Virus record (IMG/VR): IMGVR_UViG_3300043395_002359
Span: 29,041-93,040 of that record
DNA from: a virus
Reading direction: 5' to 3' (one strand)
Length of the DNA stretch: 64,000 bases
Position 1 is the stretch's first letter. Each line of letters starts with the position of its first letter. The position numbers and the translations under genes are program-made. Under the pieces are notes generated by a model. It saw only the letters and a program-made list of their open reading frames with translations, was not told the origin of the DNA and searched no databases. Shown in pieces: positions 1,754 to 56,569 of this stretch.

Positions 1754-4700
1754 ATGGCTATCAATGTTCAGATAAACGTTGATTTAAGTAATTTATCTCA
1801 AAGGGCAATTGAGCAGGCGGTTGCCGATAGAGCTGCTCAGATTCAGAGCGAAGAGGAAGCCAAGATAAAGAGAGAAGCCCTTGAGGCTAAGACCAACAGA
1901 CTAGAAGAGAGGCGACAGGACTCAAAGGGAATAGAGGATATGCCTACTTGGCGGTCAAAGCCACCAAGACTTGAGCTTAGCAGCTACGCTATTAAACAAA
2001 AAAATTGGAATATGATGTGGTTTCGCGTTGAAAATGCGCCAAGCCAAAGGCGCTTGCGTGCCTATATTAGTAATTCGGAAGGCTCTAGCTTTAGGGAGCT
2101 TAACCTTGACTGGGCGATGGAATCTTCTCTTTTGCCAATAAACGGAGACCCAGCATCTCCGGTGGACGAAGAAATACCCACTCCTTCCTCTTACTTGGAA
2201 TCATTCCTTCCGGATTGGGTTGAGCCCAAAAATTTACATAAAGTAGATGATATGCCGCCGTTTAGCACGTTTGTGGTTCCAAGAATAGTTGCAGGAAATA
2301 ACGCAAATGGCTTCTCTTTAGCAAAGCAGCTAGACAATTGGATTTATAATCCATGGTTTATGGGTTTAAGTCTTAGCAAGACTGGGCCCTTTGTCCAAGT
2401 CCAGAGAGTTTTGTGGGAAAAGATTCAAGACTCAGGTGGAACACGCATAGCCCTGTTACCATTGATAGACGATATCGCTGTTGCTGTCGTCTTCACTGAA
2501 ACCATCGTCAAAAGTAGAAGTATAGATTTCTTTAGAATAAAACAAGGAGGGGGAACGATTGCGGCTAATTCGCCGAGATCGGTAAGTATTCCCAGTGTAT
2601 ACAGATACGCCCAGAGTATCAGGGGGAATGGGGAGCAGGGCACCCAGGAGACTCCAACCTGGGAGTTCCTGATTGGCAGGATACCAGGCGGTTTTGGGGC
2701 TATCAAGTCAGTGACAGCTCGAATGGCTCCAAGAAATCCAGAAGGTGAACAGATCGCTGATGGCACTAAAACCATTGGTCTAACTAATTTTGACCAGACA
2801 CATAGTATTAAGTTTGCTCTTTGTACCTCGGGAAGCTTCCCGCAGCATTACAGGCAATACTATGCCGACAAAGATGTCAGGAGCCAGCAAGCAAAGATAA
2901 GGACCGTGCTGACAGATGCTGAAAAAGATAAAACAAAATGGACATGGGCCCCATGTAAATTTGTTAGCCCAATAATGACTATTGGGACTGACCCCAGGGT
3001 TTATCATCCCAGTCCGTTCTTGCCAGACGGCCAAGTCAATAATTGCGACGGGACAGGCTACGACCTATCAAAACGAGGGTGGGATGATACCGAGTATTAT
3101 TCTGATTTGTTTTATAATTATTCTACAGGGACTACGACCAATAAAAGGGTTTATCGAGGGTGGTCTAAAACCTGGGGCTCTGAAACTGGGCAAACTCCAG
3201 CTACGTTTAAAGCTGTTTACGAGGGTGACTATTTATTTGTAAGGATCTTAGAAGTAGAGTGGAATAACCAATCTTCTTATTGTCAAAGTCAGTATGGAAC
3301 GACAAGAATCGCCCCGTACGAGGAGATCACAGAAGGAGACCGGTATACCGGCAATCATAACAGTCCGCAGAATTGGACGGAATCGCTGTATTTAACAATA
3401 GAACTTGAAGATGGCTCAGCAATAGAAGTCAACTTGTCGGGCGGAAATACCGTTTTTAACTATAAAGAAACTGCGCATGTAATGCAAGACTCGGAGTTGA
3501 TATCATATCACAATGATGTGAACGGAGTAGAGCCTACTGTCAGATGCTTCGTCGTAAGCGATGTCGCGCTGGAGGAAATAGAGCCACCTCAAACCCTTAA
3601 AGCTAATATAGGCCAACTGTTCAACAGGCTCTACCAACAGGGCGAGGACGAATTCTATGCAGCTAACATATTAGAGGGCGAGAATCAAAGCAATTTATCT
3701 TATGGAGATTATGCGGATAGCGTCTATCACTACAAGTACGGACCACTGCCAGGCAAGAATTTACTTGCAGATGGTCACGGCAAGTCACTTGCTCGCTGGC
3801 TTCCTTTTAGCCCAGTACCTCAAGGTTATTCCCTGGAAGAGGACTACGGATCGCCGCCAGTAAAAGTAAAGAGCTCATATCCAGGAATCGAAGACGAAGA
3901 ATCTGTATTAGCTACTCTACCTGTGATTCCAAGGGATGCTTTATACTCGCTTGGAAATAATAGCTATAAATCGTGGATGGAATGCGCCTCACTTAATGTA
4001 CTTGATTACAGAGGAGGGCAGCCACTCAAGGGCAAATCGTATATATTCTCGGTTTACGTTAAAGTAAATGATGTTGGAGCTAAAGATAATGGTATATACC
4101 CAGATGAAGTGAAAGAGTGCGAAGGAACTCTGGACGACAACGGAGGGAAGCTGGAAGTAACGGGCGAAGAAGGAAAAGCCCTAATATGCCTGCAGCAGGT
4201 TGTCCCAAAAGCAAATAAATTCTACATAAGTAAATATACTGTACAGGAAGTAGAAATTGGTTCTTGGTACAGGATTTGGATGAAAATGACATGCAAGGGT
4301 GGTGATATTTTTAGGATAGATAACTGGAATGGCAACCATCTGTCTTATTTGCAAATGGAGGTATTTGGCCCCCAGCTCGAGAGTACCGAAAAAGAAAAGC
4401 CTACAGATAAGGATAAGAACGACAAGCCTACAGATTACTTGCCAAGGGGTGATTTTGCGCAGGTTTACAGGAGTGGTGTCTATACAGATGCCGTTGCAAA
4501 AGGCAACGCTTACAACAGTATCGGCACTGAAACTGCTGGCTGGGTTTATGACCCAAACGCCATACCTGTAGATGGAGTTTTCATGAGCCAAGGCATTGGC
4601 TTTGAAAGCATATATCAGCAAGGAGATAGTGGGACCCTTAACGCTCAAAGTGTTGTTAATAATCTTGGAGCCGACAGCAACTCTAACTTGTTTCCGGAAG

Positions 4701-40811: not shown

Positions 40812-43151
40812 ATGGCAGAATTTAGCGCGTTCGCTCCCTCGGCTCCGGCAGTCTTTTATCGTTCATATTCTCGGCGCAAGGAGGATGGCTCTCGCGAGAA
40901 TTTCGAAGAAGCTATCACCAGAACAATCTCAGCCATTGCTGAGATTGGTGAATTTACCCCGTCTCAGCGGCAAATGGCACTCGAGATGGGCCTTAAGCAG
41001 CATTGTTTCCCGAGTGGCAGAGCTCTTTGGGTAGCTGGAACTAAATGGGCAGAAAGGCCCGATAATTTCCCTGGTTATTACAACTGCTGCTCCATGCATG
41101 TTGACCATGTGTCCATTTTTGGATTGCTAATGGAATTAGCAATGATGGGAACCGGCACCGGCGCCGTGCTGGAAAGTGATGTGGTTGATAAGCTTCCTGC
41201 TGTTGTAAGAAGGCTTGATATAGAGGTCATCAAGCACAACGAAAGTGAGGCAGGCGGCCAGCAAGATACAGTCATCAAACTAACTGGTGTGCAAGATAAC
41301 AAGCCCGTAATCCTTGTATCCGTTGGTGATTCCAGGGAAGGCTGGGCTAGCGCCTATCAAGGCATTATCGAGCTAGCAATGGGCCGAGAAGCTGACGGGG
41401 AAGATGAGGATCTAGCTAAGCAAGATGCTACGATTATTCTCGATCTTAGCCAGATTAGACAGGCCGGGCAGCCCCTTAAGGGGTTTGGTGGCACCGCCAA
41501 TCCTATTCGACTACAGGAAACCTTTGAGCGGGCGTGTCTTGTTCTGTCTAAAGCGAAGGGCAGAAAGCTTACATCAGTTGAATGCTGCTTGCTGATTGAT
41601 GAAGCTGCCAGCGCAGTCGTGGCCGGCAACATCCGTCGTAGCGCCGGCATGCGCCAGTTCAGTTCTTATGACCTGGAAGCTGTTTGCGTAAAAGATAACC
41701 TGTATACTCAAGACGAAGAGGGTAACTGGAGTGTCGATCCGGAAAAGGAATGTCTCAGGATGGCAAATCACACAAGGTGTTTCCATCACAAGCCTACGCT
41801 TGAGGAAGTCAAGCATTCAGTCACTAAGCAATTCTGGTCTGGCGAGGGAGCTATCCAATACGTGCCAGAGATGATAGCTAGAGCGAACGCTGATATCCTT
41901 GACACCCCAGAACTTGTCAAGAAGTTCCTTGATGTATATACGAATCAAGGCAGAGTAGACGCGTGCAGCCTTCTGGCTAAAATAGCCAAGACAAACGGAC
42001 AAGAGCTTGACGAAAAAGAGCTTGACCATAGAATGAACAGGTACGGTCTTAACCCCTGTGGAGAAATTGCTCTGAAAGATAATCTTTGCAATCTATCTGA
42101 GATACATCTCAATACAATTGACCCTAAGGACGTTAAATTACAGGATAAGGCTTTTTATGTTGGAGGTCTTCAGGTTGCTGCTCTTTTGCAGCATGAATTC
42201 ACCCAAGAAAGGCTTAACTATAGCCGTAAAATTGACCCTATTGTTGGTGTTAGCTTTACTGGTTTATTTGATTTCTTTGTTCACGCCTTTGGTGCTGAAT
42301 GGCTTGGTTGGATGATGGATGGCTGTGGCGATGAAAAGCTAATGGCGAAATATTATTCGGCTGAAAAGAGATTCCTGTCTCGCTGGAAGAATGCTGCTAA
42401 AAAAGGCGTAACTGATTACTGTAAGCAGCATGGCCTGCGGATTCCCAACAGATTCACCACAGTTCAGCCTGCTGGATCAAAAAGTCTGCTTACCGGTGCT
42501 TCCGCTGGATGGCATCCGCCAAAAGCACAGCGTTTTATTAGAAGAATTACATTTGGTGTAAATGATCCGCTTGTCAGCGCCCTTCGCGACCATGGCTACA
42601 GCGTCATTCCTGCTCAAAGTGCCAGGGATGAAAACGGCAACTTGCTTGATGACATTTCAGATCCGAGAGTCCAGGAAGTTCTGGTCGAAATACCCACCGA
42701 AGTCTCTTGGGCTAATATTCCTGGATGTGATCAGTATGATCTGAGCAAGTTACCTGTTGTCTCCCAGTGGAGGCTGTATATGATGGTGCAGAATATTTAC
42801 ACCACGCATAATACGAGTGCTACTCTTGAATTTCGTGAAAACGAAATAGATGATCTCAGCTCGCTTATTCATTCGAATATCGAGAAGGATGGCGGCTACA
42901 TCTCTGCAGCCTTGCTTGCGCGTTTCGACGCAAACGAAACGTTCCCAAGACTTCCTTTTGAGCCTATCAGTAAGGAAACGTTTGAGCGGAGAATGGCTGT
43001 TGTAAATGCTGTTAGATCAACTCTGCCGGAAGAGACATCGATGCTTGACTTATTAGCCAAGTATGATAATGCTGATTATGAATTGAAAGGAGCGGCCGGT
43101 TGTGATTCTGACAAATGCCTTTCTGAGGACAGCAAAGTATTGAAAAAATAA
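40812..43151 (+). CDS. nrdJ: Class II (B12-dependent) ribonucleotide reductase
   Basis: PSGRALW, YNC, NIRRSA, NPCGEI, CNLSEI, TTVQPAGS, C-terminal CDSDKC. Confidence 0.95.
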   Translation: MAEFSAFAPSAPAVFYRSYSRRKEDGSRENFEEAITRTISAIAEIGEFTPSQRQMALEMGLKQHCFPSGRALWVAGTKWAERPDNFPGYYNCCSMHVDHVSIFGLLMELAMMGTGTGAVLESDVVDKLPAVVRRLDIEVIKHNESEAGGQQDTVIKLTGVQDNKPVILVSVGDSREGWASAYQGIIELAMGREADGEDEDLAKQDATIILDLSQIRQAGQPLKGFGGTANPIRLQETFERACLVLSKAKGRKLTSVECCLLIDEAASAVVAGNIRRSAGMRQFSSYDLEAVCVKDNLYTQDEEGNWSVDPEKECLRMANHTRCFHHKPTLEEVKHSVTKQFWSGEGAIQYVPEMIARANADILDTPELVKKFLDVYTNQGRVDACSLLAKIAKTNGQELDEKELDHRMNRYGLNPCGEIALKDNLCNLSEIHLNTIDPKDVKLQDKAFYVGGLQVAALLQHEFTQERLNYSRKIDPIVGVSFTGLFDFFVHAFGAEWLGWMMDGCGDEKLMAKYYSAEKRFLSRWKNAAKKGVTDYCKQHGLRIPNRFTTVQPAGSKSLLTGASAGWHPPKAQRFIRRITFGVNDPLVSALRDHGYSVIPAQSARDENGNLLDDISDPRVQEVLVEIPTEVSWANIPGCDQYDLSKLPVVSQWRLYMMVQNIYTTHNTSATLEFRENEIDDLSSLIHSNIEKDGGYISAALLARFDANETFPRLPFEPISKETFERRMAVVNAVRSTLPEETSMLDLLAKYDNADYELKGAAGCDSDKCLSEDSKVLKK

Positions 43152-53239: not shown

Positions 53240-53395
53240 ATGGCAAAACAGGGTTTGTATGCCAACATCGCGGCAAAGCGCAAAAGAATTGCAGCAGGCA
53301 GCGATGAAAGAATGAGAAAGCCTGGAACCAAGGGTGCTCCTAGCGCTCAGGACTTCAAGGATGCAGCTAAAACTGCAAAGAAAAAGAAAAAATAG
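53240..53395 (+). CDS. Small basic protein (51 aa, not in ORF track)
   Basis: MAKQGLYANIAAKRKRIAAGSDERMRKPGTKGAPSAQDFKDAAKTAKKKKK; GGAAAGCTAA at 53212. Confidence 0.75.
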   Translation: MAKQGLYANIAAKRKRIAAGSDERMRKPGTKGAPSAQDFKDAAKTAKKKKK

Positions 53396-53473
53396 CCTCA
53401 GCGAGAATCGAACTCGCACACCTTGCGGCGACGCATTTTAAGTGCGTTGTGTCTACCGTTCCACCATGAGGCC
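53393..53473 (-). tRNA. tRNA-Leu(UAA)
   Basis: Acceptor GGCCTCA/TGAGGCT, loop CT-TAA-AA, long variable arm, GTTCGATT T-loop. Confidence 0.92.
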
Positions 53474-53549
53474 TGGTGCTCCCTGAGAGGATCGAACTCT
53501 CCTGAGACCGATTATGAGTCGGTTGCTTTCACCAGATAGCTAAGGGAGC
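53474..53549 (-). tRNA. tRNA with CAU anticodon (Ile2 favoured; elongator Met possible), CCA encoded
   Basis: GCTCCCT/AGGGAGC-A-CCA; ACCGA-CTCATAA-TCGGT; GAGAG-TTCGATC-CTCTC. Confidence 0.9.
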
Positions 53550-53557
53550 ATGGCCAC

Positions 53558-53585
53558 AGTCTAGCGGCGTGCAGCCTGGTGTCAA
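53558..53585 (-). promoter_or_regulatory. Sigma70-type promoter for the tRNA pair
   Basis: TTGACA-16 nt-TAGACT just upstream of the CAU tRNA. Confidence 0.65.
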
Positions 53586-54369: not shown

Positions 54370-54762
54370 CTATTTAGTTAGTCTGTTGTTAAAGTTAAAC
54401 TGATAGCCGGATAATGTATCATCATTGCAAAACGATGAATAGGTTCTATGGCAACAGATTTTATTTATAGCAGTTTCATGTACGCCAAATTCTTTAGCAA
54501 TACTGGCTTGCGTTTCGCCTAGTTTGTTTCTGAGTCTGATGTCATGAATCTGTAGATCGCTAAGGAATCCCATCTTGCGTCCACGCTTGATCGGATCTTT
54601 GCTAATAGGAGGACGCCTCCTTACTCTTTGTATAACTTTGCTTGGAGTTGATGCTGATACATTTGTGATTCTTGCAATGCTATCGAAATCGTAGCCTTGG
54701 CACCTTAGGTCCCAAATGCGGTCTTCCTTGGGAATGGAGATTCGTCCTCTTGTTCTGGTCAT
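54370..54762 (-). CDS. Double-HTH DNA-binding protein
   Basis: SIARITNVSAST and ASIAKEFGVHETAINKI. Confidence 0.7.
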   Translation of the reverse strand: MTRTRGRISIPKEDRIWDLRCQGYDFDSIARITNVSASTPSKVIQRVRRRPPISKDPIKRGRKMGFLSDLQIHDIRLRNKLGETQASIAKEFGVHETAINKICCHRTYSSFCNDDTLSGYQFNFNNRLTK

Positions 54763-54822: not shown

Positions 54823-54984
54823 ATGTCAACCTTGAAGCTCGAGAAGACCACCATCCTGGCAATCTGCCTGGCGACCGCCGGATTGTTTACTTATTCAGAA
54901 GTTGCCAAAAAAGAACACGAAATTCACATGAAGCAATCAAAATACGAAAACATGGTAAAAGATATCAAAATTAACAATCGATAG
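54823..54984 (+). CDS. Small membrane-anchored protein
   Basis: TTGACG-18-TATTCT upstream; N-terminal hydrophobic helix. Confidence 0.5.
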   Translation: MSTLKLEKTTILAICLATAGLFTYSEVAKKEHEIHMKQSKYENMVKDIKINNR

Positions 54985-55046
54985 GCGCTTTCCCGAATCG
55001 AACGGGTTCTCTAGGCTATCTGCCTAACGTGTCCAACACCAAGCGC
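54984..55046 (-). ncRNA. Miniature tRNA-like element
   Basis: GCGCTT/AAGCGC acceptor, GTGT-TGG-ACAC, TAGGC-AGATA-GCCTA, CCCG-TTCGATT-CGGG. Confidence 0.65.
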
Positions 55047-55503
55047 AGTGACCCTCCTGTTTGTGCGTCATCCAGCGTCCTGGAGCTAAGCATGGAGGGT
55101 GTTGGTCGAGGAGGAGGTAGATGCGCCTTTAAGCCTGATTTGAAATCAAGCGGCTTCATGCCTCCTCCCCATTTCCGGTTATTACTGAGACATCACCTGC
55201 ACACCGGCAAACTCTGGTGATGAATGATCCGATGCGCTTGCCAAATGGGTCCCCGGCGCAACCGTGGATCAGACGGGTGGAAGGTGATCAGCCCCCCAGC
55301 CTGGAATCCCAGGACTTAGGCCCGATGCGGCGACCGGAGATTTCCAGTCCATGCAGAGCGGGAACGCAAACCAGGAAAGGTAACCCACACCAACGGTGGA
55401 CCTCAGAACTGGCTGCACCTTGCCGACAGAGCAGCAAGGGTGGCTGGCAGAAGGACCGGGCATGACGGATGTAAAGACAGCCAACAGAGGCCCGGCCTCT
55501 GTC
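55047..55503 (-). ncRNA. Long multi-hairpin structured RNA of unknown family
   Basis: Dense stems, mostly G-U compatible on the minus strand; TATACT at 55515-55510; no credible ORF. Confidence 0.55.
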
Positions 55504-55574
55504 CTAACCAGTATACCAAGCCATGACAGGTATTTTCACAAAAATACATATTTGTCAGAAAATGAAAAAGACAC

Positions 55575-55735
55575 AAAAATAGACCAGACGATGTGGTTGA
55601 GCCCTTGTGAACGCCCCCAACTGGCTTGATAGTTGGGATAGTAAGAGCCACATCATCTGATCTATGGTTCTTAGATGGCGAGAATATGTGTCGCCGCCTA
55701 AGGGATGTGTCTAAACCATGCAGGGCGTCTAACTG
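55575..55735 (-). ncRNA. Putative ~160-nt small RNA
   Basis: TATACT at 55746-55741; two long stems; U-rich tail. Confidence 0.5.
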
Positions 55736-55753
55736 ATGCCAGTATAACGGAAA

Positions 55754-55827
55754 CACCCCAGACAGGATTTGAACCTGTGGCCGACCGCTTAGAAGGCGGT
55801 TGCTCTAGTCCACTGAGCTACTGAGGC
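55754..55827 (-). tRNA. tRNA-Arg(UCU)
   Basis: GCCTCAG/CTGGGGT; ACCGC-CTTCTAA-GCGGT; ACAGG-TTCAAAT-CCTGT. Confidence 0.95.
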
Positions 55828-55828
55828 A

Positions 55829-55935
55829 AGGCGTCGCCAATAGCCACTCTTACCTCCCCGTCGGAAGGTGCAGGCATCGAACCTGCAGAGGCCAGTCCCC
55901 GTGGAACTGCCGGGAATTCCACCCGGAACGCACCC
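55829..55935 (-). ncRNA. Tandem circularly permuted tRNA-like RNA
   Basis: Two units of 5-bp stem/7-nt loop plus 7-bp hairpin; TATACT at 55943-55938. Confidence 0.65.
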
Positions 55936-55943
55936 ACAGTATA

Positions 55944-56468
55944 TCAGGCTCTGGCAATCATCTCGGCCCTGATCTGCTCAAAGTCAACAGGTTTATAGTT
56001 CGTATGTTCTACGCATACGCAGCTATATCTGGGGTCAAGATCACCTGTATCATTTAAGACTTGCCGATAATGTAAATGTCCGTGGATATTGCCTTTGTAT
56101 CTAACGACTCCACAGACATGAACAGGAATATGTGTCAGGATATAGCGATCTAAATAATGGCATCCCCTGATATCATCGAAATATTTCGTATAGTCCTGAA
56201 GCTTGAAAATATCATGATTTCCCCTAATAAGAATCTTTCTGCCATTCAATTTTTCTAGACATTTCAGTCCGCGCCTAGGTATTGCAACGTCTCCGAGGTG
56301 GTAGACCTTATCATTCGGGCCGACTGTCGAGTTCCAGTTTTCTATTAAAGCTAAATCCATCTCGTCTACGTCAAACCACGGCCTCAGCTTCGTGCCATCG
56401 TCGCGTGTGAATTTGCACACATTTGCGTGTCCAAAATGAGTGTCAGAAGTTAAGAATGTCTTAACCAT
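55944..56468 (-). CDS. Calcineurin-like metallophosphoesterase
   Basis: SDTHFGH, HLGD, GNHD, THIP, HGHLH. Confidence 0.92.
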   Translation of the reverse strand: MVKTFLTSDTHFGHANVCKFTRDDGTKLRPWFDVDEMDLALIENWNSTVGPNDKVYHLGDVAIPRRGLKCLEKLNGRKILIRGNHDIFKLQDYTKYFDDIRGCHYLDRYILTHIPVHVCGVVRYKGNIHGHLHYRQVLNDTGDLDPRYSCVCVEHTNYKPVDFEQIRAEMIARA

Positions 56469-56569
56469 TGTGAGATTGGTCGTCACCACAATATACCTTA
56501 CAGAATGCGAAGGCCGCATGACGCCCCAGATATTGCGTCTAATCTGACGCCGACCACACCCCCGCAGTT

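Follow-up and report, generated by a model that had tools for sequence, protein, structure and literature searches.

A modular RNA island with an abiF-type hairpin in the tRNA region of a Synechococcus siphovirus, a candidate decoy antitoxin

The DNA analysed here (the window, 64,000 nt) comes from an IMG/VR virus record of 93 kb (IMGVR_UViG_3300043395_002359), rated complete, of which it forms the final 64 kb. The phage is a Synechococcus siphovirus, and inside its tRNA region positions 54984-55946 carry, on the minus strand, an RNA island with no credible gene. The island includes a tRNA-Arg, two tRNA-like elements (modules U and G) and a long RNA of about 520 nt (55503-54984) composed of seven modules in the order C-B-A-D-E-F-G (Table 1). 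Module F is related to the abiF antitoxin RNAs. We give about an even chance to the reading in which F is a decoy antitoxin keeping a host AbiF-type abortive-infection RNase neutralised, the island being an RNA counter-defence cassette.

The only long open reading frame (ORF) of the interval, 117 aa, has no Pfam or PHROG family and spans RNA modules that differ among relatives by indels of 1 nt and 35 nt, which are not multiples of three. The coding reading was dropped on these grounds, in agreement with the initial annotation, which had seen no credible ORF here. That annotation had also proposed a minus-strand RNA rich in G-U pairs. Many G-U pairs do fall in covarying helices, where they would be A-C mismatches on the opposite strand, and this designates the minus strand. 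Folded as a single sequence, the full 527 nt is just slightly more stable than shuffled sequence, whichever strand is taken (z about -2). The case for structure rests on comparison and not on energy.

The initial relatives were contigs found through the adjoining phosphoesterase gene, and they already held the RNA pieces in different orders. A 22-nt pattern taken from the 3' part of the long RNA was scanned against viral contigs, metagenomes and genomes, and these three scans together yielded 40 distinct versions, two of them chance matches. Elsewhere the modules are arranged as A-B-C-F-G, A-C-F-G, C-B-F-G, C-B-D-(E)-F-G and A-B-D-E-F-G, and also as D-F, D-F-G, A-F-C, U-F-G and U-B-A-D-F-G. 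Compensatory base changes occur in modules B, C, D, F, G and U across about 40 related phage contigs. These homologs, together with the very deep metatranscriptome contig described below, take the RNA beyond chance. The RNA of about 520 nt ending in a tRNA-like element that had been predicted is therefore present, but it is a chain of shuffled modules rather than one new large RNA. No Rfam family matches the whole in cmscan, the abiF model aligning with the F hairpin alone, over its full length; for modules A-E, U and unit 2 (a fold downstream of the tRNA-Arg) nothing was found at gathering or permissive thresholds in the window and 44 related loci. When the island was compared by blastn with 50,697 phage records, nothing but the tRNA-Arg matched, and a related 400-nt array had no blastn match. 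At this sensitivity, therefore, the array is absent from cultured phages.

Module F forms 28 pairs, with 98% of cells paired and 7 pairs changed on both sides, compared with about 50% paired in slid controls. In cmscan, positions 1-37 of the abiF model (RF03085) align to window 55099-55051 and the boundaries match the covarying hairpin. The scores are 25.4 bits for the window, 32.5 bits for the L081 contig and 53.5 bits for L115, where hairpin A and a D-like loop precede a minimal F by about 100 nt. The gathering threshold is 37, and because the window copy is below it while L115 passes, membership of F in the abiF family rests on its relatives. A covariance model built from the F alignment alone finds the abiF site of L115 and also the F of another array, L164. 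The flanks AACAC before and UCACU after F are shared as well. F has in common with the abiF RNAs (RF03085; RCd22; AbiFr) a CCC.CC/GG.GGG stem of 6 bp, the A bulge, the (U/A)GC-GC(A/U) stem and, on its 3' side, a single-stranded bulge containing CAAA. It differs from them in lacking an adjacent abiF gene, in being embedded in a longer multi-module RNA and in having a tip enlarged by a 12- or 47-nt hairpin. Only chance-level matches were obtained with F by blastn against plasmids. One match to the F pattern in genome contigs, from a non-cyanobacterial metagenome-assembled genome, was rejected as chance since the 5' half of F is missing.

AbiF belongs to the AbiF/Cas13-ancestor family. The abiF-motif RNA RCd22 binds and neutralises the C. 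difficile AbiF toxin in cis and in trans (10.1101/2025.04.15.648962). In a solved complex, AbiFr inhibits PbAbiF, single-stranded bulge nucleotides blocking the RNase (PMC12737573). No match to Abi_2 (PF07751) was found in the complete genome of the window, nor in a further five records that bear arrays and of which two are 100% complete.

The long RNA is abundant. In a freshwater metatranscriptome run (X7, record 29), a 451-letter contig corresponds to window 55062-55467 (406 nt) with 1 other letter. Its k-mer depth is 1396, against 2.5-8.4 for contigs of flanking phage genes; depth in a DNA run (X3) is flat across the region, at about 380-410. The long RNA thus stands two orders of magnitude above the neighbouring messages in this one run. 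Module U, the tRNA-Arg (represented by a foreign tRNA contig only), unit 2 and G are not covered; such libraries lose small RNAs, and the gap at these four elements is no evidence either way. The contig carries Illumina adapter letters at both ends. Position 55467 is located in the variable hairpin of C, and 55062 is the first A of the CAAACA bulge of F, 15 nt before G. This bulge region is the one that occupies the active site of AbiF in the solved structure (PMC12737573). Both contig ends could be processing sites or result from library bias and are not used as evidence.

Table 1. Features of the RNA island and its immediate surroundings (window coordinates)
Feature	Position	Strand	Description or basis
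Metallophosphoesterase, calcineurin-type (phrog_547)	55944..56519	-	PHROG E 1e-51
Promoter 1, extended -10 box TGATATACT	55938..55946	-	Sequence; overlaps the phosphoesterase stop codon
Module U, tRNA-top-half mimic of ~100 nt	55833..55931	-	Consensus fold, 5 homologs
Hairpins of U	H1 55926-55910; H2 55909-55893; H3 55886-55870 (UUCGAUG T-loop); H4 55868-55853	-	Plus closing helix
tRNA-Arg (anticodon TCT), canonical	55753..55828	-	ARAGORN; Rfam tRNA 67.6 bits
Longest ORF, 117 aa, GTG start	55403-55756		Non-coding by family search and indels
Second TATACT	55741..55746	-	Sequence only; 6 nt past the tRNA end, no TG extension
Unit 2, stable fold ending in a long hairpin and U run (55663-55565)	55572..55735	-	Folding energy
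Promoter 3, extended -10 box TGGTATACT	55510..55518	-	Conserved box before the first module
Module C	55450..55503	-	GAYAGAG, 7-nt box, CUCUGUU, variable hairpin, complementary box, CCWUC; pseudoknot-like
Deep contig stretch	55062..55467	-	From inside C to the bulge of F, bridging B, A, D, E
Module B	55365..55443	-	Hairpin with invariant loop UGCUCUGUCGG and second stem, exchangeable interior
Module A	55320..55364	-	Hairpin CCCG-CUC-UGC-(loop/inserted hairpin)-GCA-U-CGGG; internal here, with 24-nt inserted hairpin
Module D	55226..55317	-	Three hairpins and pseudoknot, conserved loop GACCCAUUUGGCAAGC
Module E	55106..55225	-	Hairpin, loop able to pair downstream (CCGG/CCGG), long GGGGAGGAGG/CCUCCUCCUC stem
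Module F, abiF-type hairpin	55051..55102	-	6-7-bp outer stem, A bulge, UGC/GCA stem, 3' CAAACA bulge, variable tip
Module G, tRNA-like element of 63 nt	54984..55046	-	Acceptor GCGCUU/AAGCGC, shrunken D arm, UUCGAUU T-loop

TATACT hexamers lie at 55943-55938, 55746-55741 and 55515-55510, the first and the third being extended -10 boxes. These elements, the tRNA-Arg and the adjoining phosphoesterase gene on the same strand are all found where the initial annotation had placed them. Its three promoters fare unequally. Promoters 1 and 3 are supported by the conserved TGnTAnnnT box: of 40 distinct sequences (window counted, and with two of the 40 being chance pattern matches), 31 have it 15-19 nt upstream of their first module. 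A TGGTATAAT or TGGTATACT box also precedes module U at equal distance in L005/L059, L095 and L061. No homolog was found for the second TATACT, which is singular to this genome, and its promoter status has no comparative support. The motif TGNTATACT is not enriched across the whole window (4 found, 1.8 expected).

Modules C, B, D and E make up, with A, the part of the long RNA upstream of F. The 7-nt box of module C has a perfect (7/7) downstream complement in 52 of 58 distinct copies, compared with 5.6% for shuffled boxes, and 18 different box pairs exist among the copies. In module B, 13 of 19 predicted pairs are changed on both sides (11 sequences). Module D shows 96.6% of cells paired, against 28-46% in slid controls, and 10 of its 26 pairs are changed on both sides, the pseudoknot included. 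Module E is the weakest: it has three homologs only (the window, L007 and L067), in which compensatory changes were recognised by eye. The pentamer CUCUG recurs in conserved unpaired parts of A (55358-55353), of the B loop (55431-55421) and of C (55503-55497), and the GAYAGAG that starts C is the exact complement of CUCUGUC in the invariant B loop. The two modules could thus form a kissing contact or an alternative pairing, or the recurring sequence could be a binding site that the modules share.

Module A has a sequence that never varies, so that its covariation cannot be assessed; its loops are mostly RNA tetraloops (UUCG, CUCG, GAAA). It is present in at least 129 distinct contexts in IMG/VR contigs, from both GC-rich and AT-rich phages. 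Among the matches listed, a TANNNT hexamer ends exactly 10 nt upstream of A in 81 of 129 contexts (control 6%), which makes A a widespread 5'-terminal hairpin of small-RNA and tRNA transcripts in phages. It may stabilise the 5' end, or act as a put/nut-like element or a protein handle. Downstream of it come C, D-like modules, B, tRNAs or unknown modules, and the window RNA belongs to a large family of such combinations. In the L153 contig (6860-7060), two tandem copies of hairpin A are followed by D-like hairpins and a divergent abiF-like hairpin (CCCCAGG...GCGCAAACUUGGGG).

Module G has a cloverleaf-like consensus fold (22 homologs). Both sides are changed in 7 of its pairs, and covariation is seen in the acceptor, the anticodon-like stem and the T stem. 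The window copy carries a 5-nt 'anticodon' loop (AGAUA) and no U33, and the loop of its relatives varies (gat, cat, or 8 nt). It is called neither by ARAGORN nor by Rfam, while ARAGORN calls its relatives Ile, Met or '???'. Judged from these sequences, G retains acceptor and T arms yet cannot decode. A shrunken cloverleaf at the 3' end of a long abundant RNA is reminiscent of MALAT1/mascRNA, and here too RNase P and RNase Z could set the ends. However, that precedent is eukaryotic, cleavage at G is only predicted and the deep contig stops 15 nt before it. The possibility that the long RNA (unit 3) is a tmRNA or an RNase P RNA, considered by eye, was supported neither by ARAGORN nor by Rfam. 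In the L164 array (A, D-like, C-like, T-arm, F, G), F (3376-3320) and a G-like tRNA mimic (3319-3243) stand on the minus strand. They are immediately followed on that strand, at 3035-3233, by a permuted two-piece tmRNA (tmRNA_permuted, 57.5 bits) with a tag ending in ...AVAA. This arrangement indicates that tmRNA, tRNA mimics and abiF RNA can share one RNA operon.

Module U precedes the tRNA-Arg. Its consensus fold, from five homologs, has 33 pairs of which 5 are changed on both sides, and these compensated pairs confirm at the structure level the permuted tRNA mimic that the sequence had suggested. It consists of two tandem units, each with a T-arm stacked on a closed 6-7-bp stem (H2, H4) reading GGGA/UUCC. 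The third-pair G-U of H2 and H4 is invariant in the five sequences while neighbouring pairs covary. U resembles the two-piece (permuted) tmRNA in its order (T-arm, 3' acceptor strand, 5' acceptor strand) and in the G-U third pair. In contrast to that RNA, a loop of 3-7 nt replaces the intervening segment in U, and neither a coding part nor a tag reading frame is found downstream. Neither ARAGORN nor Rfam makes a tRNA or tmRNA call in U, and the tmRNA_permuted model (RF04321) gives no match at E up to 5. A single tRNA, as ARAGORN proposes for the L005 copy (tRNA-Phe), was rejected since compensatory changes favour the four-hairpin fold. A pattern scan for U returned only already-known loci. U always comes directly after a promoter, as do modules A and C, and also heads other arrays; its presence in U-F-G and U-B-A-D-F-G makes it a further module of the same system.

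Downstream of the tRNA-Arg, unit 2 has a minimum free energy of -57.8 kcal/mol (z = -5.3 against shuffles). No homolog of it was found in 2 Mb of related loci, and the separate RNA unit of about 160 nt that had been proposed here is thus without comparative support. It may be a private small RNA, or the trailer and terminator of the U/tRNA-Arg transcript.

The metallophosphoesterase gene adjoining promoter 1 has the sequence of an intact enzyme. Its metal-binding motifs DxH, GD, GNHD, H and GHxH are invariant in 16 homologs (D26, H28, D70, G76-D77, G100-N101-H102-D103, H130, H146-G147-H148-x-H150), and the profile of these homologs matches PDB 1XM7 at E 1e-24. An assignment to PdeM, the ligase-associated phosphoesterase (TIGR04123), was rejected (29.9 bits for a cut-off of 150). 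The linkage between this gene and the arrays is real: it is found within 2.5 kb and on the same strand in 29 of 41 distinct F-arrays, which were retrieved by RNA pattern alone. Two gene orders exist. In the window type the phosphoesterase precedes the array, and in the L075 type (L075:4334-4906) it comes after, past ribonucleotide reductase (RNR) genes and an 82-aa ORF. The phage RNA system beside a phosphoesterase that the initial annotation had put forward holds beyond this genome. Among the matches listed, 17 of 109 hairpin-A arrays have the phosphoesterase within 2.5 kb, about half of the 17 carrying F or a G-like module.

Phage T4 can heal and seal RNA with Pnkp and Rnl1, and metallophosphoesterase-kinase-ligase trios are predicted beside tRNA clusters. 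As in these cassettes, the calcineurin-type phosphoesterase is tied to phage tRNA regions, a tRNA lying within 1.5 kb at 30 of 47 distinct loci of its (diverged) homologs. Unlike them, the neighbouring ORFs scanned include no kinase and no RNA ligase, the sole ligase nearby resembling a DNA ligase. HEPN RNases leave cyclic-phosphate ends, and a role in RNA-end healing would therefore fit the enzyme.

S-CRES1-3 and S-CBS2, which are siphoviruses of Synechococcus, have terminases that share about 70% identity with that of the window. Glutamine-II riboswitch aptamers are found above threshold in two related phage contigs (L070:83-139, 42.7 bits; L067:4273-4328, 40.6 bits). Terminase kinship and riboswitches together point to an estuarine or freshwater Synechococcus-type cyanobacterium as host. 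Protein searches with the DUF3155 and RNR genes returned phage-like contigs only. The class II RNR of the window (40812-43151, 780 aa) is intein-free; many close homologs in related contigs reach 1000-1190 aa and carry intein/homing-endonuclease domains (PF14890, PF14528, PF13392). Directly downstream of module G, the minus strand encodes a 130-aa protein (54370-54762) with two weak helix-turn-helix matches and matches to PHROG HNH-endonuclease families, and this gene has its own TTGACA-16-TAGAAT promoter-like site (54829-54802). A tRNA-Met/tRNA-Leu pair (53393-53549) is located about 1.5 kb downstream of the island. A near-consensus promoter (TTGACA, 16 nt, TAGACT; 53558-53585, minus strand) stands just upstream of the pair and a T-rich run follows tRNA-Leu, forming a separate transcription unit.

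In the decoy reading, the two conserved extended -10 promoters would drive the small-RNA island. Promoter 1 would give U and then the tRNA-Arg, in a transcript that probably continues through unit 2 to a terminator. Promoter 3 would give the transcript of about 520 nt, with its seven autonomously folded modules and a start predicted near 55503. F, as an expanded abiF motif made abundantly and without toxin, would titrate the host AbiF/Abi_2 HEPN RNase once host transcription fails. G and U are probably processing and stabilising handles for RNase P and RNase Z, or else further decoys; as such a handle, G would define and protect the 3' end. The remaining modules may be additional protein-binding decoys, and the phosphoesterase probably takes part in the same counter-defence, possibly with the RNA ends produced by the nuclease as its substrate. 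An antitoxin copy that is highly expressed in a lytic-type phage and comes without the toxin has a decoy-like profile. The initial annotation had imagined decoys for tRNA-targeting defences: the decoy part is sustained by the abiF-type F and the missing toxin gene, but the enzyme implicated is an AbiF-type HEPN RNase and there is no sign of tRNA targeting. More tentatively, the arrays may belong to a large and undescribed group of RNA anti-defence islands in phages. Each transcript would open with a constant 5' hairpin (A, U or C) and continue with interchangeable modules, every one a decoy or handle for its own RNA-binding host effector, and a dedicated phosphoesterase would be coupled to the array. 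F would then target AbiF, and G and U tRNA-processing or tRNA-targeting enzymes.

The pseudo-ToxI of the Pectobacterium phage PhiTE is reportedly an antitoxin-RNA mimic that escapes the type III ToxIN system, a short repeat array known from escape mutants. The proposed role of F is comparable, a phage-encoded, toxin-less copy of an RNA antitoxin silencing an abortive-infection RNase. AbiF is however a HEPN protein and not a ToxN, and F is a conserved single-copy module within a composite RNA, known from sequence and from a metatranscriptome.

Several observations weigh against the decoy reading. The window F scores below the Rfam gathering threshold for abiF and is a single copy, whereas RCd22 has two motifs. 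Abi_2 had no match in the one cyanobacterial control genome searched (Synechococcus elongatus). Modules A-E have no known counterpart, so that 'decoy' is extrapolated from one of seven modules. The metatranscriptome evidence consists of contigs from one run and speaks to presence and excess, not to strand, start or end. On the side of the enzyme, the nearest solved relative is Aquifex aq_1665, which has no known function, and the kinase of a healing cassette was not found among the ORFs scanned.

The long RNA might instead be one ornate RNA acting as a whole, for instance as a multimeric scaffold, its abiF-like hairpin being a reused motif with a role unrelated to AbiF. GOLLD and ROOL are large ornate phage or prophage RNAs beside tRNA genes with no assigned function (PMC5737381). 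The window RNA shares with them its length, its high degree of structure, its phage origin and its site in a tRNA island. Modules B, A, D, E and the larger part of F are joined in a single contig whose depth is uniformly high, C and D have pseudoknots and conserved unpaired loops, and the GAYAGAG of C could pair with the B loop. We nevertheless consider this explanation rather unlikely: module order and content vary freely (A-C-F-G, C-B-F-G, D-F, U-F-G), which fits a string of interchangeable modules better than a fixed tertiary architecture, and the Rfam models of GOLLD and ROOL gave no match in the window or 10 related loci at permissive thresholds. The position of hairpin A at the transcript start in the contexts counted above, often flush against tRNAs, the tRNA shape of G and U and the location of the arrays among tRNA genes would also suit leaders, spacers and RNase P/Z/E signals that shape tRNA-operon transcripts without any function in trans. 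This appears improbable, since unit 3, the most abundant species seen, includes no real tRNA in need of processing, its unpaired nucleotides are conserved more strictly than a spacer would need, and F matches a defined protein-binding antitoxin family.

Mimicry of the translation machinery would have U and G engage AlaRS, SmpB, EF-Tu, RNase P or the CCA-adding enzyme and alter host translation or trans-translation. The G-U held invariant in H2 and H4 amid covarying pairs lends itself to this idea, a third-pair G-U being a feature of tRNA-Ala and tmRNA. The tail GGCUAUUGGCGAC resembles the tmRNA segment after the acceptor strand, and the L164 array is directly followed by its Rfam-validated permuted tmRNA. 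However, the acceptor-like stems are closed by loops and leave no free CCA end, there is no tag frame, U escapes both tmRNA_permuted and ARAGORN, and only five sequences are available; such mimicry seems still less probable than a purely structural role in tRNA operons. The smallest weight goes to F as the cognate antitoxin of an unrecognised phage-encoded toxin, within a phage toxin-antitoxin or superinfection-exclusion cassette. The abiF RNA was indeed first characterised beside a prophage-encoded AbiF (10.1101/2025.04.15.648962), and the 82-aa ORF between array and phosphoesterase in the L075 type has no known family. Against this stand the lack of any Abi_2 match in the six records, three complete genomes among them, and the fact that the only constant protein neighbour is the phosphoesterase and not a HEPN protein.

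The abiF motif, the AbiF-RNA toxin-antitoxin pair and antitoxin mimicry by phages are already known. Our literature search found no description of a toxin-less abiF module in shuffled multi-module phage RNAs with a fixed 5' hairpin and a phosphoesterase. The present analysis adds the link to the phosphoesterase, the promoter rule for hairpin A and the evidence on expression. To our knowledge, few cases of RNA-based counter-defence have been described in phages, such as pseudo-ToxI and RNA anti-CRISPRs. The module set provides compact, covariation-supported RNA folds, pseudoknots included, for structural study. If the decoy reading is true, phage tRNA islands would also be RNA anti-defence islands, modules A-E would be probes for new RNA-binding defence effectors in cyanobacteria, and the phosphoesterase would gain a testable role.

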